Below are positions 3,112 to 64,000 of a stretch of DNA of 64,000 bases, piece after piece. Numbering within the stretch: position 1 is the stretch's first letter; each line of letters begins with the position of its first letter. The position numbers and the translations under genes are program-made. A model generated the notes under the pieces. It worked only from the letters and a program-made list of their open reading frames with translations. It did no database searches and had not been told where the DNA came from. This stretch comes from Amoebophrya sp. A120 (taxonomy: Eukaryota; Protista; Dinoflagellata): positions 2,327,923 through 2,391,922 of the forward strand of contig CAJINV010000014.1 in the NCBI GenBank assembly GCA_905178155.1. The letters are read 5' to 3'.

Positions 3112-6100
3112 TCACAACCCGCGGATCTGCCTTTTGCGATCGAATTCCGAAAAGAGGTGGTTCAGGGAGCTCCCCGTGCTGTTCATTTGTGCCATCATGT
3201 GCGCACCCTCGTGATTATCAACACTGTTTCCCCGTCTCTCCGCTTTCGCGGCGGCCTTGCGCGCCTTCAGCACCTGTCTCGCGCTGCCCTCCATGCGTCT
3301 CCTGTCCGGCGACATTGATCTGGCGTACCACTGCTTGTACGGGGCTTGCCCGATGTCCATTCGCGGTAACGACTCGTGCTTTGCCGGGTAGGCCGTGACG
3401 CGCTTGTGGTCCACCATCTTCTGCGTCTCCGCCATGGAGCGCCAGAACGACGCTCGTTCCAGGTCCCTCGCTTCGTCCGCCAAGTAGGACATGACCTCCA
3501 TCTTCACGGAGATCAGCCGGAGCGGTAAGCGGGCCTGGTTCCACTCCTCCTCGGTGATGTGCAGAATATCCCGCAGCCCACGGAGGGACAACAGCGCGCA
3601 CGCTTTCACGATCATGCGCTTGATCTTTTTCGCCTCGGTCTTCTCCTGTGCGGACTTGAAGATCTCTTCGTTCTTTTTGGGCACGTGCAGGTTGTCGAAC
3701 GACCTGGTATATTTTTATGTGGGTAATATCAACCATCAAGTTGTAAGGTCATCATCATACATGATGCGCAACAAGAATGCAAACGTAATATTTTTGTCTC
3801 TTTTACGACCACCTACGTACTTCATCTAAGCCTAAGGGCACCAGAAATTTGAGTTTATTTATATTTTTAGAAGAAGTTTTTCTTATTATGTATGTAAGTA
3901 CCTAAACGGCAGCGAGTGTGTTTTCTGTCTGTCGATCATGTCCTCCAGGAAGTTCAACATAATCACTGACTCGTTCGTCTTTTCGTGGTACAGCATATTC
4001 TTTACGTCGGATACTATCGGGTTCTTCTCGATGTCCATGAAAAATCCTCGCTTCACTTTGCCCATATCGTACAGCCAATTTTCGCGGTCCGGGATCGTCT
4101 TTTCGTGCGATTTATGCATTGCAAAAGTATCGTACTAGTATAAATTGCATGACAAATTTTATCAGGAAGAAAATTGGAATTTGTAATGCAGATTCGGGTA
4201 GGAAACCAGATTTGTCATGCATGTCTGCAATTCCTACGTGTACGATACTTCTGCAGTGGATAAGATTCGATTAACGTGTTGTTGATCAGGGTCCCGTCGA
4301 TGAATTTCGGTTTGCTCATGTCGATATCAAATGTAAAAGTGTCTGGGTCTGGAAGAATGCAACTTGTGATGCTGCATTTGGATTTCAGAAAAATCTGTAT
4401 TGCATGAGTACCAAAAGGAATGTAATTTTTGCTACGCGGAGAGGGCATTTGTCATGCGGAATAGGCATCAAGATTAGAAGCTCTCAAAGAATCTGTGTTG
4501 CTAGGGCATGCATCACAGGCATCAGGTTTCATGCAAAACGTGCATGACAGGTGTCAGAATCTTCCAGACCCAGACATTTTTACAGTTGATAGTCGATCTC
4601 GGACTCTAGCGGTAGTCGCGGCTTCCACGCCTTGATTTTCTCCAAGGGGTCGACTTTCTTTTTGGTGACGAATTCAAAGAAATCATCGGACTCATCTTCA
4701 TCGTCGTGCTCGACGACTTTCTGCACCTCGGTCTCCACATCGTCAAACATGGGGTGGTCATATTCCGACGGACGGGATTTCCGGTATTCTAGAGGTTTCA
4801 CTAACGGGTCGAAGGGAACCTTTTCCGCCATTTTCCTGCTACCACAGGGGTAAGGGTTCACGTTGTCGGCCCAAATTGTTACGGGACCGAGAAGGGTGCG
4901 GCGACCTGAAAAAATGAGTATGAGTATCGTTTGTGGGATAGTTTTTTCAGAAATGTTGGAAACTTCTACATCAAGATGGAAAAAAAACAAAGGATTGGAG
5001 TTGCAGTACTACAAAAATTCAGTTTATCTAACAATAGCGATTGCTATGCGGCGCACTAGCAGTGCTAGTCGTGCTGTGTAAATCAATCAACGAAAAAATA
5101 TACGTGGGTGCTTATGCGCCGGCACCCCTTGCGTTGAGCTGTCCGTGGCCATACTGATGCCTGTGCCTTTCCTCGAAAGCGGCGACCCAGTTTTGATGGT
5201 CACCCTGGCCCCCGCCAGCGTCTGACTCACTGTTACTTCCTCGGTTGGTGGTCTGTCTGGGGACGACCCCATACGGCCTTCCCCGGTCGTGATATTCTGC
5301 GTGCTGCTCGACCGCGACTGGACCATGGCGTTGTGGTGGTGCGAAGATCCTACAAGGTCCGGGTCCAAGAACTCTTTCGACGCGCCCCGACTTCCGATCG
5401 ACCCACCGGGGCTGAGGTCGTTTTGGTGAAAGGTTTGGGATCGGGTTTCGTGGGGTGAGGGGGCGGAGGAAGTCTTTTTGGTGCCGTGAATTTCGTCGGA
5501 AATTTGGGAGGAAATGTCTCGGGACATATTCTGCTCCAAAGGCACTTCCATTAAAGCCTGTGCCGACTTGCCCAATGCTGTTTTGCGGGTTTTTTCTTAT
5601 TTGCATCATCACGGTTGTAGAGATGAAAAATGAAAATGAAAACTTCAACAACTTTTGGCACAATTATAACGCAATTATCCTGTACATGGAGAAAACTCTG
5701 TGACGAGGACGTTCTTTGGATTCGTACAGGTACTATCGCTAACAAGATCAAGATCGGATCAAGAAAATCAACATGCATTTCTTGCCTCAAGAAGCTCCTG
5801 TCACGACAGGAGAGGACTCTAACAAAATACCGCTGATCGGCCTCCCTTCCACGGTGTAAAGTGGCAGCGTTTTCGTGGCGTCCCAATCTGCCGAGCTTCT
5901 CCTGCCGCGCGTCAAGGTCTCCAAAGTGTCTTCTTCCGCTAGTTTCGATCTTTCCTCGGCGGAATTTGATCTCCGGTAGGACTGGCCGTTTTTGTTCAGA
6001 AAATGGGCCGAGTTGTAGCTGAACACCTTCTTGTTCTGTGCGTCTGTAGTGGAGGATTAGATTGTACTGTTTTTTGACAGACAATAGAGAAGGTCAAGAT

Positions 6101-7679
6101 ACAACGCGTGTCTGCAGCCATGTCTGACTACTTTTTATCAGCACCACTGCCAATTTGACCCCTTGCGCAAAGAACTGGCACGCGGCACATCCGGGTATGA
6201 TCTCAAGTGAATTTTAAAAAAAACAAAAACCGAATGTAATTTATCACAATTTTTTGAAAAATAAATACAGATCTGCGCCATTCTATCTTCGTGTTCCCCG
6301 TCTTCCATCTGCCTTCCGACCTTCGTGTTCCTCTCTTTCGTCTGCGACAAGTACACCGAGTTAAACACGGACCCCTGTTGCCCGTGGACAAACACCAGAT
6401 CCGTGTTCAGGTCTTCCTGTTCCTCCTGCCGCTTGTACCCCTGTCTCGACCGGTGTTTCGCCTCGGTTAATGCCTGCTCCATGTCGGGGAGCCGGATCGG
6501 ACACGTGCCGTGGGCGGTGGCGTAGGCGGTTTTCCGCAAGTCGAATATGGGGCTCTCAAGCGTTACATTCTCAATTGTTACATGAATTCGTCATGCAAAA
6601 GCACCATCATCATCCACGCGATCAAGCTGCTTCGCATGACAAATTTGCCTAGGGCTAAACAACACCTAAATTGTGCTGAATTTGTAATGCTACAGGCGCA
6701 ATCTTTCACTTTTGCTTTTCCCATTCTTGCATCACAAATCCATCATGTAAAAGTTGAGAATGTAACATTTGAGAACGCCATATCGAAGAATCTGCGGTTC
6801 GAATCCGCGTACAAATCGATGTCGCGGAGGAGATTCGACAGAATGTCGTTGTACACGCAGGTCACGTCGGATAACTTCAGCGACATATGCAATGCAAAGG
6901 CATCGTACTCTAGTGTAAATTGCATGACAGGTTTTTTCAAGATAAAAAATGCAATTTGTAATGCTGATTTACCTTACTTGCTGGATCTGTCACGCAAGAC
7001 GGCGATTTGCACGAGTACCATACTTTTGCACAGGATACGACAACTTCTGCAGCAACTCGTTCTGCCGCATGTACCACAGCTTCGCGTCCAACGTGTTTAC
7101 CGTCGTGCTATGCGACACGAAATTCCGGTTTCGAACCAACCCGTTGTTCACCTGATTGTGGATTTTCGCGTCGAACATAATCTGCCCCGTTTGGCTCGCG
7201 GGGTGTAAAACCGTATTCGGCGGGACTTTGGTACCGCCGGAACTGGTTTGCTCGATTTTGGTTCTCCTAGATGAAACGTGCAGTCCGGGGATGGAGAGCA
7301 TGCCCTCCTCGGCGGAACTGGCATTCTCGGACTCGGTTAACGTCAACCCGGTCTTCGTTTTCAAAGTTGGGGTCTTCAGGGCCGGCTTCTTGTGGAAATT
7401 GACGTGGTCACTGGTCAGCCGGTGGTCGGCGAGCGTAACGTCGACAAGGGACTTCAAATATTCCGTTCGGTTTTCGCCCGTTTTCTTCAGGCTCGTGAGC
7501 AAGTCGGAGGTTTTTTCCCGGGTTGGGGAAGCGTCGAAGGATTCCAGTACCTCCCGGTCGTTTGCCGGATCCGCCGTGACGGGCAGCCCGGGGGAAAGGT
7601 CGCGCTCACCCCACATGCTCGTAGTTTTCCTATTCCGGTCGGAGGATTCTACTTGTTCACCTCCGTCGTGAAGACCCAT
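3112..7679 (-). CDS. Multi-exon hypothetical protein (about 9 exons; 4 GT-AG introns and 4 TIR introns)
   Basis: Minus-strand ORF pieces join in frame across GT-AG introns (6044-6268, 5578-5830, 4906-5103, about 3704-3901) and across four TIR elements (junctions QKLS|LK, RRFFD|LRK, SEID|MSK, LIES|HEK). No family recognised; start codon uncertain. Confidence 0.7.
4113..4262. mobile_element. TIR intron/introner, family A (150 bp)
   Basis: Ends tatgcattgcaaaagtatcgtac ... gtacgatacttctgcagtggata; flanking repeat cgatt/agatt (1 mismatch). Removal restores the frame. Confidence 0.9.
4325..4591. mobile_element. TIR intron/introner, family B (267 bp)
   Basis: Ends tatcaaatgtaaaagtgtctgggtctggaaga ... 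tcttccagacccagacatttttacagttgata; direct repeat gtcga. Frame restored (EID|MSK). Confidence 0.92.
6546..6782. mobile_element. TIR intron/introner, family C (237 bp)
   Basis: Ends tatggggctctcaagcgttacattctcaa ... ttgagaatgtaacatttgagaacgccata; direct repeat tcgaa. Frame restored (FFD|LRK). Confidence 0.92.
6886..7037. mobile_element. TIR intron/introner, family A (152 bp)
   Basis: Ends tatgcaatgcaaaggcatcgtac ... gtaccatacttttgcacaggata; direct repeat cgaca. Frame restored. Confidence 0.9.
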
Positions 7680-9762: not shown

Positions 9763-10147
9763 TTTGGCGATTCGGTTTTGGTAGTTTTTGTAGTACTAAA
9801 AACTTCGTATATGCGGTTGAGAAAGGGTAGAAGTTGTGTTGATTCCTCGTCGAAAGACAAAGAAGGTAGGAGTTTTCGCGGCCGTGTGTGATATTAATTC
9901 GAAGATTTTATTTGTTTTGCAACAGATGCAAAAGCAAAATACAGCGCTGGGGATATCAATTGGAATACGAAGTAGACACTTGATGCGGTGCTGTATCTTC
10001 GCAGACGGGACATGTAATAGAATTGCCTAGTATCGTTGACGATGATGGTGCATGGAAATGCCTAGTCTGATTCGTTTGATCCAACCGATGATCTGCCAGG
10101 ATCTCCATTCGTTCCCATTTGCTCCGCTGAGTGCTATCCTTTTGAAG

Positions 10148-13535: not shown

Positions 13536-13732
13536 GAGTGCTATCCTTTTGAAGATGATCTTGGAAGCGTCGGGATCGCATTTTGTCCGAGCGTGTCTTT
13601 TTGTACGTATTTCTTTGCGTTGACATCATGATTTTTTTTATGTGGATCATCATGACAAACCAATAATATAAATATTTACTACGATGATCATCTTGTTGTA
13701 CATGATCGCACTACCTCCATTGCGTCTGGTTA

Positions 13733-18669: not shown

Positions 18670-21600
18670 TTATGCAAACAAACTGCTATTCAACAACGAC
18701 TTTCTCTCCACACTGGTGCTGCACTTTTCGTTTTCTTGCACAAGCTTCAAGTGGTCGTTACTCAAACTGTTCGGCGGCCGCTCCACACATCGCGTCCGTC
18801 GGCTGAAAGGGTCTGACACGCGATCGCTAATTTGTTGGTCCCGAATTATATTGTGCTTGTGACAACTCGAGTTGTCGTGGTCAACGCCCGCGAGGGACGT
18901 TCTTGCCCGTGGAGGTGGGAAGAAGTTTGACCTTGTGAAGTTGTGGTAGCTGCTTGGTAGAGCAGGAACGACTGCAGCACTTCCACCAGGAGTCGCCGTT
19001 CTGATGCTGATACTATCTTGCAACGAGCCGCGCATCGTTGTTGTACTAGAAGCCGGTATTGACACGGACGCGGGCGTCACCACCGCGGGCGCCGCTGTGA
19101 AGATCGGAGTGCTCTTTCCAGGCACTGGCCGTGCTAGTCCTAGTGCTGCACTTTCTTGGTGTTGTTGTGGATGGTGCGAGAGGACCCTATCACTTTTGCC
19201 GGGACGAGTTGATGCTTGGTCGTAGCCACGCCTGTAAGCATTCGTATTGTAGTTCTCTGTGTCGTGGTTGAAATGCACCTTGGCCGCCGCTGCACTTTGA
19301 CGGCTCAAAATCTCATCAAAATTTCCGCTGGAGATGCTCCATTCCTCACTAGCGCTGTTCCTGTCTAAAGTATTTGTCATGCTTGCTGCCCCGGAAGCTC
19401 CAGCAGGCGGTAAAGCATTTTCATCAGACTGCGACAGATCCTTCTGCCCAGCTCGTAGTTGGTGTGCAGCTGGTTGTACCCCCGGAGGTCTCGCGACTTC
19501 CCGATCTCTCAAGTCCATGTGCAGCTCGCGGCCGAAAAGATTTTTCTGTTTTTTCAAGTTCATCGAGGAATTTAGTGTAGTACTCTCCTTGGTACTGATG
19601 TTTGTGTCTGCAAGAACGACGACATCTCCGACTCGACCCTGTCCTGGTATTAAAATCTGCTGTCTTGCCGTGGCGGTCCAGTTCGGTGGCTGCGGGAGGT
19701 GGTCTCTCGCCAGTGGTGTCGCACTGAGAATGCTACTGTGCTCCTCTACATCCAAGGTATAGCGTCCAGTTGTGCAGCCGGTGGGAAAAGATCTGTCAGG
19801 AAGTAGCTTCGGCCTGCTGCGAGAAGCCGCGGGAGCAGGACCTTGACCTTGTCCGTAATTCGAATTCCCCCGTGCAGGTTCTGGTAGGTGGAAAGTCTCA
19901 CTGGAGTTGTCGGCCAAACTAGACATCGAAATCTCACTCTTCGGGGAAGATTGACAGGACGAAGGTAGCCGCACGATGGGATAATCTTCATACAGCCCCT
20001 GCTGTTCACCGCGTCTGGTTTTCTTGTCACCAGCTGCAGCTGCCAATATCAAATTCGAGGGATTCTTATGTGGCGGTCTTGTTCGCTGTCTCGCCACCGG
20101 GGCGCCGGTTGCGGGTCGTTGTGCACTTCTAGTAGTTGTAGATGAAATTACACCAACGCCAGCAACTCCCGATGGAACAGACAAATGTGCTGGTCCCCTT
20201 CTCGGGCTCGGCTTGAACGGGGGCAGCACCGCGGGCGAGCCCTGCAACCGCTCACTATCGTCGAGCTTCTGCGGTTCCTTGGTCAGCTTCTTTCTGCTGT
20301 TTGTTGCGTCAGAGGTGGAGGAGGAGGACGTCGACGCTGTGGGGTTATTTACATCGCCGTTTCGAAGATTCGTGGTTCTGCCATCCAGGGTGAGTGAACC
20401 TAAAACTGCTGTTCCGTAAGTGTTTGGCGGCCTCGCTGGCGTGAGGATTAGCGCTGGCGGGGGTTGGAGGACAGGGGTTGTGTTGGCTTCTTTTTGACGA
20501 TGGTATCGTTGTGATGTACCGCCTTGTGCAGTAGAACCATCTAGACTACTACCCGGACGATGCTGCAGATTGCCACTCGAGTTCGATTTGTTGAGCTGGA
20601 GCATCTCATTGAAATTGCTCGACGTAACACTGTCCAGGGAGTAGTGGCCCTGGCCGCGACCTCCAGGGGCAAGAATTTGGGAAGATGAAGAAATCATCAC
20701 ACCTCCTTGTTCGTTGACGCGCAATTCCGGCACACCAAACCCATGTCCACCAGAAGATGAAACAGGTGGTGAGTTGCTCAAGCTGGTTGCGCTGTGGGAC
20801 GTCGTGTGGTTGTAGTCTTCGTGCGTACTCTCCTCCGCAGTGGTGTGCTGGTTTGAGTCGTGGTATACAGGAAAGTCGTCGTGGTTGGTACAGTTCTTAG
20901 AGGAATTTGCTGGCGGGAACACGACGAGGTGATCCCGTTCGACGTCGTGCTGTCGTGTTTCTTCGTTGGCGTTGTTCCCTGACTTATTCGCCCCCGAACT
21001 AGCAGAACACAACATGCCGGACACGCCTGACGACAGTGCCGATGCCGTGGACAGAGACCGCATCTGCGCTCTGGAAGACTCAATCTCCTTCAGTAATTGC
21101 TCTAACTCTTCCACCCGCAAACTGGTACGTGCAAAGGTGGAGTCCATATTGCCAAAATTGTTGTCAACGCTAGGTACAGCACCAAGTGCAGCAGATGTTG
21201 TGCAAGTAAGATCACGATCACCTCCCTGATGGTCGCGATCTTCGCCAGCACGTATCCCCGGAAACAGCCTCTTCAGTACCGTCAAAATATCAAGTGTAAA
21301 AATGTCTGGGTCTGGAAGATTCTGACACTTGGCATGCACGTTTTGCATGAGCCATGATGTCTGTGATGCATACTCTAGCAATACAGATTTTTTGAGGGCT
21401 TTCTGATGCTTCTTCCGCATGACAAATGCCTTCTCAGCGTAGCAAAAATTGCATTTCCTTTAGTACTGATGCAATACAGATTTTCTTGGAATCCAAATGC
21501 AGCATCACAAGTTGCATTCTTCCAGACTCAGACATTTTTACATTTGATACAAAAATGCCTTCTGTAACTCTCGGTTTTTCAAATGTTCTGTATCCACCTT

Positions 21601-24600
21601 TGACTTTAGATTTTGCATCTCGGAGTGGAGCTGGTGTTCCACTGACTTGAACTCAGACGCAAGGGAGGCGAGCGCGACTTGAATCTTCTCTTCGATCACG
21701 CTGTGTTGATCATCCGCTGCAGAACTTGTGTCCTCCTCTTCCCCGGCAGCCGATGTCGATCCCGCCCTACTTCGCCCACTTCTGCACGACCGCTGCTGCC
21801 CAGCAGTTCTTGGATGAAAGCTGTTTTCGATGTACCCGAAGAGCCGCTCTCTCGCTTTCTGGTCCAGCGACAGGGACAGGTCTTGCAAGATCGAGGCGTT
21901 CGCGCTCCCCGCCAGGAGGTCAATCGTGCGTCGCTGGATGTTGTTGGAGGAATCTGGCGCAAAAACGTCTTGCCGGTTTTGATCGTGGTCAGAGGAAAGA
22001 ACTTGTGCTGCGGTAGAAGCAGGATTACGACATCTTCCGGGAACCCCGACTACATCTTGCTTGCTCACCACCATCCTCGCTTGTACGGAGCTTGCTTGCT
22101 TCGGTGAAGAACCATTGGACCGCAATTCCATCTCTGCATCGTGATCGTGATCTCCATGTAGTAGATTTTTGCTGCCTGATGTGCTAGAAGTACAAGAATC
22201 CCCCGGGGGGGCCTGCTCCTCCCCCTCGAGCTGATGCTGATGGATTCGCTTTCTCATTCTCGTACCAAACTGCCTGCTGCTCGCGTACAACTTGTCTACG
22301 GGATGGTAATCGAAATTCTTTGTTGCGTGCGTTGTTCCACCTGCACCTCCCCCGCCGAATTCCGCGGACATCAGCTTATGCAAATCATCCACCGAGTACC
22401 TTCTCGAGTTGTTCAAAACTGAAGAGTTGTAACTGGAGGCCCGTGTGTGCGTTGGCGTAGATTTTCTTGAGGATTTCCGCGAATCTGTGAACTTCGTTGG
22501 CTATCGTGGGAAAAAAGTGTTATAGTTACACACTCTGATGGGAGATAAGCAAGACAGAGAAGCTCTGTCATGCAGGAAATGTTTGCCAACCTGATTTCAT
22601 TCGTGTTTTCCCTTGTAGTCTGCGCATCACAGGTTTTCTTTGCCATGTCGAGCACCTTTGTGATGCAGAACCTCCAACAAATGTGTAACTGTAACACTTT
22701 TTTCTTGTGATATTGGCGGGACGAGGTCTACTTCTGGTTGTTGTACGGAAGATGATGCCGCTGGAGCTGCAGCTTTCTGGTCGTACAACTCCTGTAGTCC
22801 GGTCTTATTCGTGCTGTCGTGCTGACTCGACGTGCTAAAAGTACTATCCCGGTGCAGCTGGAAATGCTCCTCTTGTTGAACCTTATTTTTCAACGGGAGA
22901 CCACTGTCCGCGTAGTACGGCGTCTTACTCGCTGTGCTGGAGAGTCGGAGGAAGTTAGTAGACGCTGCACCTTTATCATTTTCAACACCGACCACCTGTG
23001 GCTTTGCATTCTTGCAAGACCCAGGAAAAAACGAAATCGACGCTTGCACTTTCACAAATTCACCAGTGTTCTTCTTGTTCTTCGGCTGGTTGCAGCTGTG
23101 TCTGGCTTCTTGTTCAACTACAGTGTTAGTCTGCTCTTGCATCACGACGTCATCCGAGAATGTGCATGATGTGGCAGGAACTTTCGACGCTTTTCTACGA
23201 CTTTGACTTTCCTGGACAAGGACAGTCTCGTTATAGCAACTGTCCTTTTCGAAGAACTCTTCGTCTTCCAAGCTTGCTGCCTGCGGCGACTCCAATCGGA
23301 AATTTTCCTCGAGCATCATAACATCACCGCGACGATCGTCAGTGGTTGCATCTTGTTCGTCCCTGCGAACTACAGATGTTGAAACTAAATCCGACTTTGC
23401 TGACCACGTTCCTGAGCAAATCGCGACGACCTGGTGGCTGGAACGCGACAGATTCGACGACCGGACGGAGGCTGATCCATTGGATCGGGAGCGGCCACGA
23501 GAAGTTATTTGCTCTTCATCCTTTCGCGGCTGCGGAATGCGCAACTCCTGGGCCAACGGCAACATCCCAGTACGATGATCCAACCTTCTGCAATTCGGAA
23601 TCCAGTCTTGCCACTGCAGCCCCTGTCTGGGCATGGTGGTCAAAATTCGTGACACCTTCCACTTCTTTTTGTCCACATCATCCCGGATTAAAGCTGCTAG
23701 CATGCAACAGCCCTCTTCCGCCTTCAAGGCGATCGTCGCGGAAGTGATTGTTTCCTGCTTCTTTTGCAAGACGAGGCCGTCCACCAGAGTAGGTAGTTTC
23801 GGCGTTCTGACTCCTGTCGCGGAAGCAGTACAACTGCAACTATTATTGTGCACCATCTTCCTTAGGAAAAACTGCAGTTTGGTCGCGGGATCAAACGACG
23901 TTTCCTTTGGGCTATCTCCTCCGCGCAAAAACCTCCCTGCTCTCGAGGAGGAAGACGCTGATCTGCTCCTGGTCTTCTTGCCCCTCCCGAACAAAGAACT
24001 ACGTCCGCTCCCACCCGGGATTCGATTGGCCGCGAAGAGCAAGATGTCCACTTCCGGTTGTTCTTTCAACAAGCGGGATAAGTCAATTTGGATGCGGTGG
24101 TGGTCTTTCATTTCCGTGGCTCGTCCACTTGTATTTGTACAACCTGGCATAGTTCTTCTCGCACCCTCTTGGTGTTCTTGCAACCCTTCGAGAAGAAGTA
24201 GATCCTCGTCGTCGTCAACCAACGCAGCATCATCTTCGTCTGCACGACCGGCTGCATGATCATCGGGGCCGAAAACCCGATTGAACAAGCTGCAGGTGCT
24301 AGACGTAGATTTGCAAGTCGAGGAGAGCATAGTAGAGCTGCTGTTAATATTTCGGTTGTTGTTCGCGAGGTTTGTTCGACTTGAGGTTGATGACGCAGGG
24401 GTGACATCAGAGGAAAAAATCTGCTGCAATTGATCATGCCGACTGTTGTGATCCTCATTGGAGTTGTGGGAGGACGACGACCCAACTGCGGCGCCGTAGA
24501 AATTTCTTGCCAACCTGCTTGTGCTTGTCCCTCGTCCCCTTGGCATCCGCGTAGTTGTCCTCGCGCCAGCCGGTTGCAACGAGGGCGCACGGCTGCTCGA

Positions 24601-24882
24601 GCCATGTTGCCCTGCATTCGTCCGGCCCTGTTTCGTCCGGTAATTTTTCAGGATGGTCCCGAACACCGGCGCGTTCCAATTTGGTCGCGATGGATTTGGA
24701 TGCGAAGTATTAAATGGCTCAATAAAACCCTCCTCGTCAAGAACATCGTCTTCGTCCTCGATACTGCTCACACTAGCGACCACCAGCTGCTTCGCCCCGA
24801 CCACTAGGCCGCAGTGAAACGCGAAACCCGGCTCCGTGTGCAGGGACGCGGTGAGAGGGGTGGAAGTCGAGGTGGAGGACAT
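18670..24882 (-). CDS. Large low-complexity protein with coiled coils and a possible split TerD-like domain
   Basis: ORFs 21538-22416 and 18670-21420 join across the family B element (KAFL|TVLKR). The join to ORF 22627-24882 through a probable intron is unresolved. RIQIDLSRL..EVDILLFAAN and CCMLAALIRD..KWKV weakly resemble TerD. Confidence 0.55.
21288..21549. mobile_element. TIR intron/introner, family B, reverse orientation (262 bp)
   Basis: Ends tatcaagtgtaaaaatgtctgggtctggaaga ... tcttccagactcagacatttttacatttgata; direct repeat caaaa. The body is the reverse complement of 4325-4591. Confidence 0.92.
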
Positions 24883-28556: not shown

Positions 28557-31500
28557 TCATTCGCTGTCCGTCATGGGTTCGCCGTCCATGGGCCCTAGGG
28601 TTGGATCATCGAGTCTGTCCGCCAAGTCCGTTTCTCTTTCCTCCCTCTTCCCATAGTTTCCGCTGTCCCGCTTCCTGCGACGCGTTTCCTTAACGACGTT
28701 TTCGTAATGATCGAGGATTTTGTCATTTTGGTCGTACTTCTTATCGTAATCCCGTCTGTAGCGATCATCTTGTTCCCCCCGGTCACCGCCGCGATTCCGG
28801 CTTTCATAGAGATCTTGGTACCGCTCACGGTCGCGCGCGTCCCGCTGCTCCCGCTGTTCACGCTCCCTCTCACGTCTGTCTGCCCTTGAGATAGTTGTCC
28901 CAGTTCCTGCGCCACTTGTGGTTGTTCCATGGAAGTCGTAACTAGCGTAAGCGTCCTCGTCTTCCTCCTCATTAGTCGCTTCGGGGGTGGACTTTTCGTT
29001 GTGGTTGCTGTAATAGTCGTTGTTGTAGGCGGCTCCGCTCTCGTAGGTTTCAGCATGATCATCTCTGTTGCTCCTGTTTCTAGCACTATACTGATCCCGA
29101 TCGCGCCTGTTGTAGCGATTTGAGTTGTATCTCCTGTCGTCGTCGTTTTGGTCATCGTCGGACATAGCCTGTCCGTCGAGATCTTCATGTGAGGCGTTAT
29201 CATGATCTCCATTGTCGTCTGCACGCCAGCGGTCTTGACCACGTCTGCGACGATGATCTCTTTTTCGGGAGTCGTTGCCGCGACGGTAATTCTTGTAGTC
29301 TTCCTGGTCATCTTCGTTGTAGTATTTCTCGCCGTTTTTAGCTGCATATAAATCTTCCGAAGAAACACTCTGCAGCCGCTGCAACTTTTCCTCGTGCTCG
29401 TAATCTTCATCATCCCTTGGGGACGATGACTCGCCGTCTCTTCGCCGCCGCTTCCTATTGCGACTTGTTCCAGCAGCGACCTCCTCTTGCGAAAAGTCGT
29501 CTTCAACACCATCTTCTGCGCTTTCCCGTGGCGATGCTGAGGCAGCAGATCTATCCTGAGATCTTTTCCTTCGCTTCTCCACTTTATTTTTCTTCTTTTT
29601 ATTCTTTTCGTCGCTCTGTACTTCCGTTTTCCACAAATTTTCATGCAGTTTCCGCCTTTCCGCACGCATTTTCTCCATGTCAGCCTCCCGCCCGCAGTAC
29701 CCCTCCCAGGCCTTTGCCTTCTGAATAGCCGCCTGCCGTTTTTCTTCCTTTTGGATCTCCCGCCACTTTTTGTTATCCACTTTCTGATTCGACACGAACA
29801 ACTTGTGCAAAATCGTCGCGTACTCATCGTGTTCCTCGTTCATTTTCCGCAGTTTCTCACACTGACACCAGTTGTCCCTCTCCGCCTGCTTCGCCAAGAC
29901 GCGGTGGAGCTCTTTCGACAAGGGGATGCCGTCCAAGTTCCCGTAAACCGGCTTGTTTTTCTCGTGGAAGTCCCTTGTCGCGGCGGTTCTCGCGATGGAA
30001 ATCCCCACCGCGACCACAGGCTTCGCGACCGCGACGGCAGTGGCCACTGGGACACCAGCTGCTGCTGTGCCAGATGAAGATGTCGAGACAGGAACTGGAA
30101 CCGCGGCGCCAGATGAAACCGTACCGCTCGCAGTTCTTTGCTTTTCCGGAAGCAGGTTGATGTCCTCTTCTTCGTCTTCCTCCTTCTCGTCGAAAGTGTA
30201 CTCGTTGCCGTTCGAAATTAAGTATTCAAACATCGCCAGCTGCTCCACAAGAAACTCCTGTCCAGTCGTCATTTCGCGGTCTTTTGCAGCGGCTTTCTCC
30301 TTCTCTATGCATTGCAAAAGTATCGTACTAGTATAAATTGCATCACAAATTTTGTCAAGAAAAAAAATGGAATTTGTAATGCTGATTTACCTAAAAAGGG
30401 ATATTTGTCATGCATGATAGCAATTACTACGAGTACGATACTTTTGCACAGGATATTCTCGGACTGGTGTTTATTCTTTTTCACCTTAGCCGCGGCTCCT
30501 TCCGGCTCTTCTGCTTTGGGGTTTTTGCACAGCAGCCCCCTCTCCCGGCAGAGTTTCTCCAGTTGGGAGAAATGCTCAAACTTCGCCCACTCCTTGCGCT
30601 TCTGAGACATGCGCGAGCACTCCTTGTAGTCGGAGATGGAGATTTCCCTTGAGAAACTCAACAAAAACGTCGCTTTCAAACCCTGTAAAAACATCGGGGA
30701 GAATAAACACGATTCCTGCCAGGCGGCGAGAATCCGGCAAATCCGGCCGGCGAAGTACTGCTGAGGGAATCGCTTGTTGTCGTTTGTTAACGAAGAGGTG
30801 GAGGTACTAGTGGACTGCGTCTTGAAGTAATCCTGGGCACTGAACATGTTGAACCCACTAGCTGCACCAGATAAATTTGTGTCGATTTCGTTTCGGTTTC
30901 CTTCTTTCTTGTTTCTCTTCTTTATCTTTTCATCATTCCCCGAAGAAGTTGTACTAGGGTTGCACTGCGTGTACAGAATCTTCCCGTACACCCAAAACAT
31001 CTCCGGTAGATGTTGTTCCAGTTCTTTCCGGTAGCACCAAGCCCTCGGTTGGGATAGGGAGGACGCGTTCTGTAACAAATCTGAGATCAGGTACATCCTG
31101 GCGATCGCGGAGTCGATATGGCGTTCTCAACCGTTACACTCTCAACTGTTACATGATTTGTCATGCAAAATTACCTTCAGAGTCGACACCATCAAGCTGC
31201 TTCGTATGACAAATTCTCAGAGGGCCGAGCAGGCTGATAATCGGTGCCAAATCTGTCATGCAAGACGCGCAAGATTCCCCCTATCACTTTTACCATTCTT
31301 GCATCACAAATTTATGTAACAGCTGAGAATGTAACAGTAACAGTTGAGAACGCCATAGTCGACCAGAAACCGGTTGTATTCGAACATGGCAGAGTCCTTC
31401 ACTTCTTCAAATTTCTCGAATTCTTGCTTATCGCAGAGAAACTCCGCCGTCGCCTGCTTGGCGGAATTCGCGAATCGCTCCATCAGAATCGCCATGGCGC

Positions 31501-54920: not shown

Positions 54921-55859
54921 ACAACAAACCTGCGGCCTTTTTAACAACAACATATTTGAAGATCGTTTCTTCACTTGGCTGCTGCTTGTTTTTACAACCG
55001 TACTCGCTGAACATATTCTCGCCCACCTCAGGAGGATTCAACACATGTCTTTCGCTGCAATTCAACAATCTAGGTACCAGGGGTAGGCGATAGCTGTTCT
55101 AAATCTCATTCAGTAATTACTTGACGTTGACTTTGATTCTTGGACAAATAAAGGTAGCATAATTCCTGCACTGGATTCTGGTAATTTATTCGGGCTCATG
55201 TCGTGACTACCACTCGTACCAAAGACGATGATGATGATTGATGAAACCCAACGGTGTTTGTTTTTCGCAAACAGTTCCAGTTGCGTGGTGGTCATTGTTA
55301 TTTAAACAAGATAAAGGGGTCTTGCTCTTGCATTTTGAACGTTACTACTGTTTTGCAAAGGTTGTAGCAAGTTCGTTTTGAAATTGAAATCGGAAAACAA
55401 AAAGAGCTCGAAAACTTCGGGAAAAGAAAATCGAAAATGCGACTAATTCCTTTGAAGACACTTCTTCATAAGCATACTCGAGGACTCCTTAGCGTCCCGA
55501 ATAGCAGCATACCTGTGCACCCGTGAATTTCGGCTTTTTGAATTCATGCGCGATAAACGCTTTCACTCAACAAATGGTTTAAAAGGTCTCGGTGAAACTC
55601 ACTGAATCACAATCATCAAGATGTTGAAGTCCAGTGTAATAGAAATAGTCTTCATTTTGACGAATAAAAATAAAGATAAACAAGAAAAACAATCGGATCA
55701 TACCACGATAGCGCAGTACTACCTTCATGGAAAAATTGCCAACAATTGTCTAGTACAACTGCGAAGTCGTTCTGATACTGGAACTACAGCAGGTATAACC
55801 TCAAATTCAACAAGTATTCAAAATTTTCTTTTTCTTTTAGTCCTTATCCAACTCTTATT

Positions 55860-58800
55860 TTACACAGATTCCGTGTCCAAGCTTCCCTTTTCCTGCTCAC
55901 TCTCCCCCTCGCCAGCTTCTATCTGCTGCTCCTCCTCCTCCTCCGCCTCTTCTTCTTCGTGCTCATGCTCACCCTCATCCAGCACCCCGCCGTCTCCTGG
56001 AACAACATCATCCGCAGCTGCCTCCACCTCTACCACCGCAGAAGTACTACCAGCCCCGGGTTGCGGCACCACAGCCCCCCGCCCACTCGGGCTCGCCGCT
56101 CCGGTGGAAACGGACGTGACAGATATTCTCTGCACGTTCGGCATCGCGGTAATCAACACCGGATCCGGGAGAGGCTGTGCCACGATTGCGACACCACCCT
56201 TAGGGGATTTAATCCCGCCCGGCGGGACCTCGACTTCCTCCGGCTCTTCCTCCTTCTTCTCCTCTTCCGCATCCTCTTCGGCGGCTACCTTTTTGCCCCA
56301 GGGCATCTTCGCGGACAGGGGCGAGCTGTTCGCCAGCGCCTCGGCGGCCCGGGCGGACCACTCCTCGTGCTTGGCGAGAATGGCGTCGTCCATGTCAAAG
56401 ATGTTGATCAACCCGAAGGGTCGCACGAACTTCTGCCACAACCCCAGAATGGCCGCGAAAATCGCGGTGTAACCGGCCAGGGCGCCGATCAGAGCGAGTA
56501 ACCCCGCGAGGGACATTATCCTGAGTAAAAACGTACCCACACCAGAGTTGTGATGCAAATCTGCATGCCAAAAAAGTTTGTCATGCGGAGCGCCACGAGA
56601 GGCATTTTCTCGCCATCTTTTGGAACTTGTGATGCTATAATCTGCATGATATGCTAGATCTCTGATGCTGCTGAACTCCTACCGAAACAGGATTACACTA
56701 CGAGGAGAAATTCGTCATGCCAAATGACCAAAGCTGGCTGATTTGTCTAGCAGAGTTCCCATCTTGACTCTGGTCGTGTGGGGACGTTTTTACAAATGAT
56801 AGACATGTTGGGGATTTCTTTAAACCGGATCGACGCGTGGTCGATTTCGAAAACCAGCCTGACCGAGCATTTCGACTTCATGGTGTGGTCCGCCTGGCCG
56901 TACGAGATGTCAAGCGCGCCAATGTTGGACACCCACCGGTCCAGGATGATAGAACCGTCATACTTGTGCTCCAGATAGATCGGGGAGACGGACCAAACCT
57001 GAAGGAATTGTTCGTTTCAATTTGTATGTTTTCGTTTTGTCCATTTGCGGATCATCTTGGTTCAAATTGCCAATCGAAAATCGGTTCTGACGTCTTGCAT
57101 GTCATGCGTTCTTCAAAAAGATTTTTCCGGGACCGTAACAGCTGCTTCCACTTATCCACATGAAACAGATGATGAACTACTATTCTATACCAGCCTAATT
57201 TGGATCGCTCTTTGCGGCAGAATCGCGATCCTGCCGTCCTCGGAGCTGGTCAACCCGCGTAAAGCTGCCGACAAGTCAATCGTCTGCGACTCCAAATTTG
57301 TGAACAACTTCTCCAGCTTCTCATCGTGATCACTAGGCGGCCAGTACTCCGGCTCCGTGTTCTCTAACACATCCTTCGTCTTCTCGCGGTCGACCGTCAT
57401 GTGAATCGAGGGCAGAAACATGGGAGCGTTGGCCGGAATGCCCTGCGCGCACCCATTTACCGTGTTCATGCACTTCGCTTTCCCCCTGACGATATGGATT
57501 GCAAAAGTGTCTGGGTCTGGAAGAGTGCAGGAGTTTGTCATGCATATTTTGCATGCCCCATGAGGTCTGTGATGCATGCCCTAGCATCAGAGATTTTGCG
57601 AGGGCTTTCTGATGCTCATACCGCATGAGAAATGCCCTCTCCGCGTGCCACAAATCATACCTCTTTTGCTGTTCATGCAATACAGATTTTATGTAGAGTC
57701 CAAAGGTAGCATCACAAGTTCCAATCTTCCAGACCCAGACATTTTTGCAATTCATATACGAGGGGCTCCGCGGCCCAGAGCCGCATCTGCCCGTCCACGT
57801 AATCGGTTATGGCGTTCTCAAATGTTACACTCTCAACTGTTACATGAATTTCTAATGCAAGAATGGGAAAAGTGAAAGGGGGGAAGTTGCGCCTTTTGCA
57901 TTACAGGTTTGGCGCAGATTCTAATGCTATCTAGCGCGTCAAAAACTTGTCATGCGAAGAAGGCCTGATCGTGTGAAGAATGTTAGCGCTTTTGCATGAC
58001 AAATCATGTAACAGTTGAGAATGTAACGTTTGAGAACCCCATATCGGTGGACCCGGACATGTAGGCCTTTTCCACGTCGAGAAACTTCTTGTCGAACGTC
58101 AAAGAGAAGATGGTTTCCAAATCCAGCCCCCACTCCGGTTTGGTCGACGCGAACCCTGCGTCCCCCCGCTCCTCGGGCAATCGCCAGTGCCCCGTAAGGG
58201 GGCCTTTGATCTCGTATTGGAAGGTGTTGGTGGGCAGGAACTCCTCCAGGTAGAACATCCGGTACTTTCCCTCCGAAATGTCCTTCATGTTCTTCGCAGA
58301 CAGAGCCATGTTGTTCTTCCCGCCGGCCTGAAGCTTTCTCCGACCACCACCACCACCGGCACCACCACCACCTCCGCTGGTGCCGTTGACAAACGTGAAG
58401 GGGGTGTTTTGGCAGTTCATCGTGCGAAAGTTGTCGCTGTGTTCAAACGTCCAGGAGGCCCAGCCGCCGCCTTCCACGGACCGATCTTGGGAATAGATGT
58501 TGACCAGCTTTTCGTTCGCCACGATCCGGTTCGGACAGAGGGGCAGAGCGCCATTGGCTTGTTGAATCTGGACCCTCTTCGGCATGACGAAGAGCCCCAC
58601 CTCGACTATGGGGTTCTCAAGCGTTACATTCTCAACTGTTACATGATTTGTCATGCAAAATGACTATTACCCTCCAGACGATCAAGCTGCTTTGCATGAC
58701 AAATTCTCGGAGGGCTAAATAGCACTGAAATCCGCACCAAACCTGTAATGCAAGACGCGCAAGGTTCTCCCTCTCGCCTGTGCTAGTGTTGCATTACAAA

Positions 58801-61800
58801 TTCATGTAACGGTTGAGAATGTAACGTTTGAGAACGCCATATCGACCTCGAGCACGTTCGGCGAAGTGAAAGTCTCCGTCATATCAAAGAAAAAAAGTTC
58901 GTCACGATCACTCATGCGCATTCTTGCAATACAAAATTGTTTGTCATGCGTAAAAATGCATCACAGCCAAACTTTATTAGGGATTTCCCTAGTGTTTCTG
59001 CAACACAAGGAAAGTTTGTGATGCTGAGAAAATTTGTAATGCAAAACCTGCAAGTTAGTGACTGTGACAAACTTTTTTCTCTCCATACGTCACGGTTTCC
59101 TTGTAGCGGTCTTTCGGGAGGTAAACGGAGGACTTGTCGCGGAAAAGATTCACCGCGGTAATGGTTTGGACCACATAGGAAATTACCTGAATGAGAAGCG
59201 TTTTGGTGCTAGCGATTTGCCTCTGATACAACAAGGCAAATACATGCAGACGAGAGCGCGAGCGAGACAGCGAAGTGGTCGCTCCAATATGACATATTTT
59301 TGTTTTAGAACAAGCATCACTCGTAACATGTCAGCACTAGTAGTACCTTCTTTGCCGGCATTTTCTGCGCCACGCTCGCCGCAAACGCGGACACGGCTTC
59401 CGCGACCGTATCGGCTCCGGAGACCACCTTTGTAGTGTGCACTTTGTCGTAGAACCCCAAATCCGTGAGTTGCTGTTGCGACAACGACGGCAGTGCGCAC
59501 TGCGGCACCTGGTCGATCTTCGCGTTTGGGGGCCACTTCGTGTTGTCCGACCAGTCTAGCGTCCCGGCCGGGCAGGTAATGGTCGTCGTACGCGTGGTCG
59601 CGTTGCTGCTGTTACTGCTGTTGGTACTACTCGTCAGTTGCCGTCTCCGCTCCCCCGTTAACTCGTCCACGTACCATTGGCTATTTTCTTCCTGTTCGGA
59701 GAAGATCAAAAACCGCCTTTCGTATTCCTCGCTCCCGGGTAGCGCGGTGGCGAAATCCAAAGGGTCGTTCTGGACGGTGTTCGCCCCGGCACTGTACAGC
59801 TCCTCCGTCAGTTCCCCGTTTTGCCCATACAGATTCATGATGGATCCGCCTTCAGGAAGAATCATGTGACTGTACTGCTCCCGTAAGACGTCATTCGGGT
59901 GCTTTTCCTTAATTGCTCCTGCAGCCGAAGAAGTCCCGTCGAATGGTGCAGAACTATCCTCATTGTCGCCTTCCATCTTTTTTCTGTCCTCGAATTCCTT
60001 GACTGCGGACAGGTGATCCGACCCCCGGATCGCGTCGAGTCTCCTCCATTCCAGCGCCTCCGGGGAAATCTCGTGGTAGTCTGGGATGTCTTCCTGCAGC
60101 TTGCGGATCGAGTGCTCGCTGTGGCCGTGGATCTTCATCAGTTTGATCCAGTCCTCGTCGTTAAAGACGTCGTTTTTCAGCGTCTCCGCCATGGTCGACG
60201 CGTCCATTGAGTGCGGCGTGGATTGTAATCTGTCTCGGGTAACCACCTCGTGCATCCAGGGGAATTTTTCCTTCAATCGCAAAAAGATCATCTCCTCCTC
60301 TTCCGACATGTAGTGCGGCTCTAATAATCGTCTTCTCCTCTCTTCGGATGTTTCCTCTTCCATCTTTTTCTGCTGTTCTAGGAATCTTTTGTTCGTTTCT
60401 TTCTTCGCTTCTCTCCTCTCCTTCCGGAGGTTTTCAAAATAAGCGATCTTTTCGTTCAACAACTCCGCTTCCTTTTTGTAATCCTCCTTCTCCTTATCTG
60501 TCCACTCCTTCTTTCTTGCCTTTTCCAGCAGCCCACTATCGGTCAAGCTGGCCTTCAGCCGGATCGCCTGGCCGATGGATTCTAGATCCTTCCGGTATTT
60601 GAAATTGTTTTCCGATACGCGGCGCGTCGTCCTGGGCCACATGGAGGTTGCGCCGTAGCCGGAAGAGTAGCTGGGCCCCATCATGCCAGGCATATTGGTC
60701 GAGGTTTCGTAGTAATTATTGTTGTCATTCCAGCTTCCGTGACCGCTGGCCATCCCATCATCGGGCGGGCCGGTCGTGCCGTACATGTTGTCATCGTTCC
60801 AAGTTCCGTGGTTGTTGGTCGTCCCACTTCCGGTTGACATACCAGGCATCGGGGTCTTCCAGTTCGGCGTGTGGACCGGTGGGCTGGTGCTAGCGTGGTC
60901 CCAGTTTCCCGTGTTTCCCGTGCTGGGTGGCGATGTCGTGTGCATCGGATCTGTCGTGCCGTAGGTCGGCTGGTAGTAGCCGGGCCGCGACGTGGTCTGC
61001 TGGTAGGGATCGTAGTACGGATCGTGCTGACCGCCATACGGGTCATAGGGGTCGTGCTGCCCGCCGTACGGGTCATAGGGGTCGTGGTAACCACCATACG
61101 GGTCGTGCATGTCCACGTCGTTGTACCCCGCGACCGTCATCCCCGCATCTTGCATCATGTCCATGGCCATCAGCATGGCCGGATCCACATACCCGCTTCC
61201 CGACCCCGTGGCGGACCCCATCTGCGTCACCATGGCCGCCATGGCGTTGGTGTCCGGCATTTTCGTTTCCGTCTTGACCGCCACCGTTACCGCGGTGGCG
61301 GCGATCGCAATAGTTCCCACGAATCTCAACTCGTTCTGCAGGTTCTTCAGCAAGTTGGCCGAGGACACCGTGGCCATTTGCGTTCCGAAGTTGTCGGCCT
61401 CCTGTTTGTCCTTCTTCGCAATCTCGAAATCGACCTGGACGGAGGTCGCGGCGAGTCGCCGTTTCGCCGCGTTTTTGTGGTGGTGGTAGGGCTTTTGCTC
61501 CCGGAAGGGGACTTTGCGCTCCTTGTTTTTCTCTTTCAGCATCTCCAACTCGCGCCTGCTATATCAAATGTAAAAGTGTCTGGGTCTGGAAGAATGCAAC
61601 TTGTCATGCTAAATCTGAAGCATGCAAAAATCTGTGTTGCATGATTACCAAAAGTCGTCCAGTTTTGACCAAGTCGGGAGGGAGTTTCTCATGCAGGATA
61701 GGCATGAGAGAGATTGCGCAGAATCTGTCATGCTAGGTCCTGCATTCCAGGCTTCATGGGTCATGGAAAAGCTGCATGACAAACCGCGCATTCTTCCAGA

Positions 61801-64000
61801 CCCAGACATTTTTACATTTGATATGCTAGATCCGACCACGAAGTTCTTGATCTCCACCTCGTACGGTGCGACGGAATACGTATCGGCCAGGGCGATATGG
61901 AATGCAAAGAGGTCTGGGTCTGGAAGAGTCATGCTGTTTTTGCATGACACAGAAGGTCTGGCATGGATGCTCTAGCATCACAGGTTTCGAGAAGCTTCCG
62001 CATCCGCAATGCCGAATCCGCATGACAAATCACCCACTTTGGTGACAGAAAGTGGGCAGCTTTTGCTACCTATGCATGAGAGATTTTTCTGCGTTCTGAA
62101 ATGCGCATCGCAAGTTTGTATTCTTCCAGACCCAGACATATTTGCAATCCATAGGCGAACCGAAAGGAGTCCACCACTTCTGGATCATCCAACAACTGCG
62201 CTCCGGTGGTTCCGGCCGGCAAGTCCATCGCCAGCGTCACATTCGCCTTCACCACTGGCGTGGTCTGCACCGTTTGCCCGCCGAAACTCACCTTCCCGCC
62301 GGTACAGTGTATGGGACTCTCAAACGTTACACTCTCAACTGTTACATGAAATTTGTATTGTAATGCAAGAATGGCAAAAGTGAAAGGGAAAACATTGCGC
62401 CTTTTGCATTACAGGTGTGGAGCAGATTATAATGCTATCTAGCGCATCGAGAAGTTGTCATGCGGAGAAGGCTTGATCGTGTTAAGAGTGGTAGTGTTTT
62501 TGCATGACAAATCATGTAACAGTTGAGAATGTAACATTTGAGAACGCCATACAGTGGGGCGGCGGGTTTTCGGAGTAGCACATGGGGTCCACGGACTCCG
62601 CGTTTATGCATTGCAAAAGCATCGCTCTCGTACTAATTGCAGATATGCATGACAAATCGCCTTTCTTAGCATTAGCTACAACAGCATTACAAATTCCATT
62701 TGTAATGCTAAGCTAATCATTATTTGCAATGCAATTTATACTAGTACGATGCTTTTGCACAGGATAGCGTTTTCCAACAGCAAATGCATCATGTCGTGGG
62801 ACTGTTCCATGATCGCGGTGTCCACGTACAGTTTCGCTTTTTCCAACGCTTTGGATTGGTACGCCGCGGCGGTGGACTCGGACACGCCCAGGGTTTCCAC
62901 CTGCGTCTGTCGTATTTAAAAACATCCCCACCCCATGATTGTAATGCAAATCTGCATGCTGAGAGTGTTTTTCATGCGGAGCCCAATCAGAAGCGTTTTC
63001 TATTCGCGTTTTGAAATTTGTCACGCTCCAATCAGCATGGTATGCTGGATCTTTGATGCTGCTGAACTACCTCAAACACCACCACACTACGAGTCCAAAT
63101 TTGTCATGCAAAACATCCAAAACTTGTGGATTTGTCTAGCCGATTCCCCATCTTGACTATGGGGTGGGGACGTTTTTACATAGGATAGCGTCCCGACCTC
63201 CCGGTTCTTTTGCAGAGGCGAGTCGATCTCGATCACCTCCCACAGGTACTTCAAGTGCTCCGGCGCTTTCAGCATGGTCCCGTTGAAGGAGCCATCCGCG
63301 GACTGGTACGCGTTTTGGGGGATGGAGGTTGGAATGCCGGTCAGATACTGGCAATACGCGTACTTTGCCGGCTGCGACTTCACCTGCCCACACGTCGGCG
63401 GGAGCTCGCCCTCGGCGAGTTCCGGCACCTTCACCACCCGGTCGTTGCCGAACGGGCAGTTGATGTTCACCTGCACGGTCACTTCCGGGTTGTCCAGCAC
63501 CGTTTCCACGTACTGTTGCGGAATCCCCCGGTCCCCCATGCAATCCCAATCCACCCGGCCGCAGTTACAGTCACACACCCCGTCCGACCACTGCTCCGGC
63601 GAGCACGTCCAGCTGGTCACCTGGTCGTCGCCGAGCTCCCCCGTGTTCGGATCAATAATCGGGAACAGCCACTGGTAGGCGCGCTTGATGGTCCGCACCT
63701 CCATCGGCGTCGTCTTCGTCTGGTCGGAACTGGAGGCCCGGATCAGAATCCGCATGTTGCTGTTTTTCGGCACTTTTTCCGTGTCGGAGAAGCCCCCGGC
63801 GTTGACCACCAGTAGCCCATCGTGTAACCCGTCGCAGAAAATACTGGAGCGACCGGTGGTGGTGTAATCGGTCCCGTCGATCGAAACCCCCGGCTTGCCG
63901 GTGGAGCTGTAGTCGCACCAGGGCCGCTCCTTCATGATCTCCGCCTTCGCGGGGTCGGTGCCAAACTGCACACGGAGCGGGGTTTCGTCGAAGTTTTCCT
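55860..64000 (-). CDS. 3' part of a giant membrane/surface protein (Cys-rich module, RRL motifs, YDPYGG repeats, C-terminal TM helix); 5'-partial
   Basis: Thirteen exon pieces join in one frame across 10 TIR elements and 2 GT-AG introns (59187-59346, 56999-57190). CSPEQWSDGVCDCNCGRVDWDC; TM LAGLLALIGALAGYTAIFAAILGLW; acidic tail. Confidence 0.85.
56517..56801. mobile_element. TIR intron/introner, family E (285 bp)
   Basis: Ends tatcctgagtaaaaacgtacccacac ... gtgtggggacgtttttacaaatgata; direct repeat gacat. Frame restored (IPNMS|LAG). Confidence 0.9.
57493..57756. mobile_element. TIR intron/introner, family B' (264 bp)
   Basis: Ends tatggattgcaaaagtgtctgggtctggaaga ... tcttccagacccagacatttttgcaattcata; repeat gacga/tacga. 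Frame restored (EPLV|RGK). Confidence 0.9.
57808..58043. mobile_element. TIR intron/introner, family C, reverse orientation (236 bp)
   Basis: Ends tatggcgttctcaaatgttacactctcaactgttacatga ... tcatgtaacagttgagaatgtaacgtttgagaaccccata; direct repeat tcggt. Confidence 0.92.
58607..58841. mobile_element. TIR intron/introner, family C (235 bp)
   Basis: Ends tatggggttctcaagcgttacattctcaac ... gttgagaatgtaacgtttgagaacgccata; direct repeat tcgac. Frame restored (LEV|EVGL). Confidence 0.92.
58882..59087. mobile_element. TIR intron/introner, family F (206 bp)
   Basis: Ends tatcaaagaaaaaaagttcgtcacgatcact ... agtgactgtgacaaacttttttctctccata; direct repeat cgtca. Frame restored (ETVT|ETF). Confidence 0.88.
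61000..61110 (-). repeat. Coding tandem repeat (HDPYDPYGGQ)n, 30-bp unit
   Basis: Seen in ORF 59317-61548 as DPYGGYHDPYDPYGGQHDPYDPYGGQHDPYYDPY. Confidence 0.85.
61562..61823. mobile_element. TIR intron/introner, family B (262 bp)
   Basis: Ends tatcaaatgtaaaagtgtctgggtctggaagaatgc ... gcattcttccagacccagacatttttacatttgata; direct repeat tgcta. Frame restored (GSS|RREL). Confidence 0.92.
61896..62153. mobile_element. TIR intron/introner, family B' (258 bp)
   Basis: Ends tatggaatgcaaagaggtctgggtctggaaga ... tcttccagacccagacatatttgcaatccata; direct repeat ggcga. Frame restored (RFA|LAD). Confidence 0.9.
62310..62551. mobile_element. TIR intron/introner, family C, reverse orientation (242 bp)
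   Basis: Ends tatgggactctcaaacgttacactctcaactg ... cagttgagaatgtaacatttgagaacgccata; direct repeat cagtg. Frame restored (PPHC|TGG). Confidence 0.92.
62605..62766. mobile_element. TIR intron/introner, family A with inverted body (162 bp)
   Basis: Ends tatgcattgcaaaagcatcg ... cgatgcttttgcacaggata; direct repeat gcgtt. Frame restored (LENA|ESV). Confidence 0.9.
62908..63187. mobile_element. TIR intron/introner, family E (280 bp; left end TGT instead of TAT)
   Basis: Ends tgtcgtatttaaaaacatccccaccccat ... atggggtggggacgtttttacataggata; direct repeat gcgtc. Frame restored (VGT|QVE). Confidence 0.9.

Follow-up and report, generated by a model that had tools for sequence, protein, structure and literature searches.

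How does a gene that is interrupted many times by short inverted-repeat elements give an intact message, when the ends of these elements hold no canonical splice site? The question arises from a 64-kb stretch of DNA (64,000 nucleotides, here called the window). By a de novo scan of the window for inverted ends with flanking repeats, 19 terminal inverted repeat (TIR) elements of 109-285 bp were found between 4113 and 63187, whereas each of 10 shuffles of the window gave 0 such structures. The original prediction had counted 18, one fewer. An exact 5-bp repeat together with at least 18/25 arm matches was found for 17 elements among 48 candidate pairs, and the remaining 31 pairs had an arm score of 13 or less. 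The flanking 5-bp direct repeat, predicted for all elements, is exact in 17/19 and matches at four of five bases in the elements 4113 and 57493 (each element is called by its first position).

The lengths and the TAT...ATA termini were found with the predicted values, including the single exception, i.e., TGT on the plus strand at 62908. The inverted repeat starts with TAT in 37 of the 38 element ends. An A is placed at arm positions 11, 12, 13, and 14 in 28, 27, 38, and 33 of the 38 ends, and the arms of family C have only two As in this run. The arms were expected to be roughly 20-40 bp; they start at 21 nt but reach 58 nt among those listed. The GC content of the elements is 31-47%. Remnants beyond the 19 copies were not found by BLAST in the window, Rfam gave 0 matches over the window, and the pattern scan of viral contigs gave 0 elements. 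Bins in the elements had a summed depth of 10^4-10^5, against about 42 in exons.

The elements were assigned to seven groups, i.e., four multi-copy families (4+5+5+2, families A to D) and three singletons, rather than to the predicted six or so. In transcript orientation, each of the four family A copies (4113, 6886, 30306, and 62605) begins with TATCC, and its 3' end reads TATGC. Since 62605 nevertheless has its body in the opposite orientation to the other three, the family A bodies, judged from the sequence, may flip between their arms. Family C shows an arm-internal 15-bp tandem duplication, e.g., at 31125-31153 and 57816-57844. Two further features were considered and dropped. A general bias of TATC at the 5' end and TATG at the 3' end (4 vs 1 among the window elements, 20 vs 11 among the other-assembly loci listed) was not significant, and a CG preference at the target was seen in 12/19 elements of the window but in 36/124 of a larger set, against a background of 0.33.

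All 19 elements are inside four long minus-strand frames; as frames of this kind make up about 64% of the remaining DNA, the rough chance of such a placement is 2e-4. Host gene A (3115..7679, 955 aa) holds four elements, i.e., 4113..4262 (family A, 150 bp), 4325..4591 (family B, 267 bp), 6546..6782 (family C, 237 bp), and 6886..7037 (family A, 152 bp); its scanned exons gave no Pfam match above the cut-off. Host gene B (18673..24882, 1909 aa) holds 21288..21549 (family B, 262 bp) and 22502..22712 (211 bp, a singleton in the window), both assigned by frame only. Host gene C (28557..34048, 1658 aa) holds 30306..30455 (family A, 150 bp), 31117..31357 (family C, 241 bp), and 32863..32971 (109 bp, a singleton in the window), assigned by frame and by absence from a public protein. 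Of host gene D, the window has the 3' part (55863..63998, at least 1768 aa), and the gene extends past the window. It holds ten elements, i.e., 56517..56801 (family D, 285 bp), 57493..57756 (family B, 264 bp), 57808..58043 (family C, 236 bp), 58607..58841 (family C, 235 bp), 58882..59087 (206 bp, a singleton in the window), 61562..61823 (family B, 262 bp), 61896..62153 (family B, 258 bp), 62310..62551 (family C, 242 bp), 62605..62766 (family A, 162 bp), and 62908..63187 (family D, 280 bp), the last with ACA and not ATA at its transcript 3' end. The crowding in gene D stands beside long frames that hold no element, i.e., 43026-47675 (1550 codons) and 14825-16756 (644 codons).

Deleting an element with 5 nt gave one long minus-strand frame in 19/19 cases, as predicted, and retention of any single element placed a stop inside that element (19/19). 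Sliding the junction through the repeat on the transcribed strand gave GT-AG, GC-AG, or AT-AC in no register of any element. The ends of canonical U2 or U12 introns, i.e., GT/GC-AG or AT-AC, were thus found in 0/19. Of the four host genes, two gave confirmed ordinary introns of the kind expected beside the elements. Four are in gene A (3704..3901, starting GTAC, and 4906..5103, 5578..5830, and 6044..6268, starting GTAT) and two in gene D (56999..57190, GTAT, and 59187..59346, GTAC), all on the minus strand. These six RNA-confirmed introns are all strictly GT-AG.

One element had been placed in a conserved U2SURP CID-like region. In gene C, which is U2SURP/SR140-like, a Surp module was found above the Pfam cut-off, and the junction of element 31117 falls at residue 858, within the CID-like stretch. 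The CID assignment itself comes from language-model features only, at a high score (0.91); a CID was absent from the Pfam results, PDB searches with the region gave 0 matches, and an RRM was not detected by Pfam. A search with one exon of gene C gave a single public protein, P0001 of Amoebophrya sp. A120, to which the element-free translation of the gene is identical over 1658/1658 residues. Therefore, the public annotation already treats its three copies as introns. This U2SURP-like splicing-factor gene itself needs three elements removed.

The level of removal was approached with contigs from runs X1 (DNA-like) and X3, X5, and X6 (RNA-like, the RNA label being a guess). Eleven runs were listed, and RNA is stated in the record of none of the RNA holders. 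X3 and X5 are one sample, X3, X5, and X6 are one study, and all RNA evidence consists of cDNA contigs. X1 is one DNA sample, possibly the source of the window itself, and contigs drop rare forms. The RNA comparison covered 14 of the 19 elements (regions 3000-8000 and 55500-64000). In all 14, the element plus 5 nt was exactly missing from the RNA-like contigs, which bears out the predicted precise removal as introns. In 55500-64000, one X3 contig (12,093 nt, depth 366.6) and one X6 contig each skip the ten elements and the two GT-AG introns of gene D. The six gaps of the X3 contig correspond to element plus 5 nt without a single base of difference (5186 = 5186), and the X6 coordinates agree. 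In 3000-8000, four element joints (4108>4264, 4319>4592, 6540>6783, and 6880>7038) and the four GT-AG joints are present in X3, X5, and X6, and X1 has depth 0 at each. X1 retains the ordinary introns and in this has the behaviour of DNA. At ten listed boundaries in 55500-64000, the X1 contigs continue from exon to element with no differences, unbroken at depth 38-45. Since the elements are kept in X1 and gone from the RNA-like contigs, they are removed on RNA.

The alternative in the original prediction, i.e., that the elements are cut from DNA at some life stage in the manner of ciliate IES and pointers and that transcripts come from element-free DNA, fails on this comparison and is scarcely credible. 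It would suit the transposon-like ends, the flanking repeat, and a shared internal motif that is strand-symmetric, as DNA-binding sites are, and the DNA data are one sample. However, X1 showed depth 0 at 4/4 element joints where element-free DNA should appear, its exon-to-element contigs are intact, and an exact repeat is kept in most of the copies listed from another assembly. Amoebophrya is not known to possess a separate germline nucleus, and exact removal from its DNA would therefore mean that the elements are lost for ever.

A different objection is that the elements stay in the mRNA and that reverse transcriptase skips over them, the genes being dead or the ribosome hopping between matching codons. 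A hairpin with direct repeats is the geometry of a known artefact, which amounts to 25-30% and up to >90% of reads in the accessible text of PMC8240250, and the RNA data are all cDNA. Such a jump would also keep the downstream repeat copy, as is seen at both mismatched repeats; for a hop, any 5-nt repeat includes a complete codon, and neither mismatch changes the amino acid. Against this, a single contig lacks ten elements together, and this in two samples. Inside 6886 there is no cover in X3, X5, or X6, and inside 6546 none in X3, compared with an exon depth of 302. Although 2-10 stop-carrying inserts interrupt each of them, frames of 955-1909 codons have stayed intact, which also speaks against the dead host genes that had been named as a possible refutation. 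These points are limited by the loss of rare forms in contigs and by extra RNA-like depth over 4113 and 4325, which could come from other copies or from retention and does not separate the two. A skip by reverse transcriptase or a ribosomal hop is judged very improbable. In the raw RNA run X9, from another sample, the window exons had no cover; an 88-nt family B end (61561-61648) was found there fused to foreign sequence on both sides, with 66 and 130 reads. This truncated copy seems to stay in a transcript and is possibly a natural splicing-dead mutant.

The suspected kinship with reported Amoebophrya elements was supported by the gene C protein and by anatomy. In the accessible text of Farhat 2021 (PMC7789003), non-canonical introns make up >60% of A120 introns with a mean of about 240 nt, and the inverted repeats consist of TAT, seven variable bases, and then at least three A. 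The boundary direct repeats are given there as 3-5 nt, and as 5 bp in the legend of Fig. S19. The window elements share with this class the A120 genome (by gene C identity), non-GT-AG ends in 19/19, repeats, families, RNA-supported removal, and intermixed GT-AG introns. No class-level difference from that text was found; the elements cover 6.6% of the window, against 17% of the assembly. The number of copies given in the text is 29,850. It is almost certain that the elements are the published A120 introner elements and that they are removed at the RNA level. The element class is already known in A120, and as the public annotation also splices three copies, the finding itself is not new. Relative to the same text, whose figures may show register or motif, the new points are the register from mismatched repeats, the orientation count, the internal motif, and the polarity. 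The text leaves the exact intron border open. A search of the literature, with subscription papers and the Farhat 2021 figures outside its scope, gave no paper in which the chemistry of excision is resolved. The matter is of weight because A120 has tens of thousands of introns without splice dinucleotides, and in the literature found nobody has shown the agent that removes them.

More copies were obtained by a pattern scan of one other assembly, which gave at least 140 loci; 142 copies were defined by arms alone among the matches listed. In these 142, the repeat was an exact 5-bp repeat in 124, matched at 4/5 in 11, and had 3 or fewer matches in 7, which are probably mis-bounded and were excluded from the mismatch counts. 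None of the listed loci matched the window exons. By codon usage, a strand caller that was right in 70/73 confident test sites oriented 91 copies. Among the strand-called copies listed, GT-AG was possible in 4/80, AT-AC in 4, and GC-AG in 1, which is about the chance level in the repeat. The absence of any possible canonical site thus holds for the window, 19/19, but does not extend to the class as a whole. The low GT-AG count indicates that there is no selection on the repeat for providing splice sites.

The place of the cut can be read from the mismatched repeats. In both window cases, i.e., 4113 (CGATT/AGATT on the plus strand) and 57493 (GACGA/TACGA on the plus strand), the difference is at the fifth base in transcript orientation and at a synonymous third codon position. 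For 4113, the joint is 4108>4264 and both mismatched bases were confirmed in X1 contigs; for 57493, the last base of the RNA piece is G57488, and T57757 is outside the listed X1 pieces. In 2/2 the mRNA kept the fifth base of the downstream copy. Therefore, the intron takes with it the base that precedes TAT, and the cut comes before the fifth base of the upstream copy. Register 5, i.e., removal of the element with the whole downstream repeat, is ruled out, and registers 0-4 remain. At register 4 the intron would start with N-TAT, to be compared with the GTAT and GTAC starts of the ordinary introns, and the acceptor dinucleotides are arbitrary. The introns may thus start with N-UAU, resembling the GUAY donors of the host. 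The A25 elements, which start with TTA-purine-purine in the accessible text of PMC7789003, could then be regarded as having a donor whose first G is altered too.

When the two window mismatches were taken together with the 11 listed elsewhere, 7/13 were at repeat position 5 (p 0.007, uncorrected); outside the window the count was 5/11 (p 0.05), with a confident strand call in only 2 of those 5. Synonymous mismatches, an excess of which would point to coding constraint on both copies, were 8/13, against about 0.36 expected (p 0.054). Single-mismatch repeats, such as these 11 of the 142 copies listed, report the cut position, and thousands of such repeats are to be expected in the RNA and DNA reads that already exist.

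All families of elements share one internal motif. The sequence GCATGACA is present in 19/19 elements, and TGTVATGC has 58 matches in 4.2 kb of elements, compared with 4 in the other 59.8 kb of the window. It was found in 141/142 of the other copies listed, with a peak 30-45 nt inside the ends, and occurs equally on both strands (183 vs 182 in 105 copies listed). A role as branch point, for which the reverse reads GCAUNACA, was dropped because of this lack of strand bias, and a transposase site would fit the symmetry better. The four matches outside elements are at 57100, 26856, 25705, and 19375; the one at 57100 is within a GT-AG intron and is perhaps a decayed element or chance.

Integrase-type transposases typically leave 5-bp duplications and have TGT-like ends. 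The window elements resemble integrase-type (Ginger-like) TIR transposons in the 5-bp duplication and the TGT-like end, and differ in being short and without an ORF. They are also MITE-like in their terminal inverted repeats, short length, many copies, and fixed 5-bp duplication, exact in 124/142 copies listed. It is likely that they spread as non-autonomous DNA transposons. The transposase would bind the symmetric TGTVATGC motif and make the duplication by a 5-bp stagger. The accessible text of PMC12130899 reports introner families of A120 that have inverted ends and ORFs resembling integrases, and the element described there is without Ginger termini and duplications. MITE-derived introners with canonical ends are known from Micromonas, Aureococcus, and Symbiodinium (PMC9860276 and PMC11282704, as far as their accessible texts go). 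The likeness to these is in the inverted ends, the target-site duplication, and the restoration of the pre-insertion message by removal. By the same texts, however, those introners carry or co-opt GY/AG from the duplication, whereas the present class shows no such enrichment (GT-AG-capable in 4/80 copies listed).

Which machine removes the elements from the transcript is approached by orientation, stem, and polarity. In gene D, 58607 is opposite to 57808 and 62310 (family C), and 61562 is opposite to 57493 and 61896 (family B); copies of both families in both orientations are removed from one transcript. Among the copies listed from the other assembly, family B is oriented 35 with and 35 against the transcript. 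This orientation independence would suit a separate non-spliceosomal RNA system, i.e., an endonuclease with a ligase or a second RNP, which reads the TAT/ATA stem and rejoins the message inside the 5-nt repeat. In line with the structure-guided removal that had been proposed, RNA stems were predicted in 19/19 elements (z -3.7 to -13.8), and the first pair had a value of 0.85 or more in 14/19. However, the pairing shows no sign of RNA-level selection, as G-U and A-C are equally common (22:23 in the window, 63:76 in the other-assembly copies listed), and arm conservation may be at the DNA level. Moreover, in 62605 and 62908 the three terminal pairs are mostly open in prediction, yet both elements are removed exactly.

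A directional signal was found in family B, in which arm positions 4-9 come closer to the consensus at the transcript 5' end (34 vs 11 of 74, p 0.0008; two further thresholds gave much the same), a range chosen post hoc, with position 4 alone giving 20 vs 11 (p 0.15). Positions 11-32 of family B arms showed no 5'/3' bias (35 vs 30), and a control by contig strand gave 42 vs 29 of 110 (p 0.15). The polarity fits a directional reader of the 5' end. With the NUAU/GUAY likeness it suits a donor reader better than a separate stem-reading system. Taken together, the lack of a preferred orientation, the internal motif common to all families, and the polarity at the 5' end narrow the candidate machines.

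A modified major spliceosome is favoured as the remover, and is given about an even chance. In its favour are the resemblance to host donors, the polarity at the 5' end, the lack of U1, and the precedent in Fritillaria. In the accessible text of PMC7789003, nearly all spliceosomal proteins were found in Amoebophrya, and U1 snRNA was not found. Under this explanation, pairing of the arms in the transcript would place the two repeat copies next to each other. The 5' cut would fall between repeat bases 4 and 5, where the intron start N-UAU would be read as a GUAY donor with its G relaxed. The 3' cut would be set by position, four bases past AUA, and not by an AG. Against a modified spliceosome stand the absence of AG in any register, the lack of a strand-specific branch signal, and the strict GT-AG ends of the ordinary introns (6/6); a spliceosome that is generally relaxed need not preserve such strict introns. 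No strand-biased motif was found for a branch point or pyrimidine tract, and the symmetric arms could supply both orientations.

The same three observations keep a separate RNA system near the modified spliceosome, and it is put at somewhat below an even chance. Canonical dinucleotides are found in no register, and the ordinary introns stay strict beside elements removed in either direction. The removal of euglenid non-conventional introns as circles (PMC11282704 and PMC12501133, in the parts accessible) also speaks for such a system. Its most specific form, i.e., a second non-spliceosomal machine that cuts any TAT...ATA element in either orientation inside the 5-nt duplication, is possible but rather doubtful. 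If it is true, one TGTVATGC-marked transposon superfamily inserts anywhere in coding DNA at no cost.

Both readings have a known counterpart. According to the accessible text of the same two papers, euglenid non-conventional introns have non-canonical ends, a terminal stem, a junction repeat, and coexisting GT-AG introns, as the window elements do. The euglenid signature there, 5'-N3CDG...CH'GN5-6|R, differs, because no CDG is placed at intron positions 4-6 of the window elements in any register. These also have long family-specific arms and an invariant TAT, unlike euglenid introns as far as those texts describe them. The introns of Fritillaria borealis (PMC13326754, accessible part) are similar in transposon origin, escape from GT-AG, and a candidate altered major spliceosome. 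Their ends are mostly fixed (AG-AC and AG-AT, in the accessible text of PMC11282704), unlike the window elements, which are without fixed dinucleotides at both ends in any register.

The minus strand carries all genes with evidence in the window, like the co-oriented blocks described in the accessible text of Farhat 2021 (PMC7789003). Beside the host genes, a protein kinase (3-1559) and a ribophorin II-like piece (35279-35836) were found on this strand. Two intergenic stretches, without an Rfam match, are GC-rich, i.e., 38900-41800 (61%) and 53400-54750 (71%), and are possibly regulatory or structural. In the first of them, TTCTAA-containing units form an array at 40201-40310, and 39762-39842/41032-41110 is an inverted pair of 81 bp.
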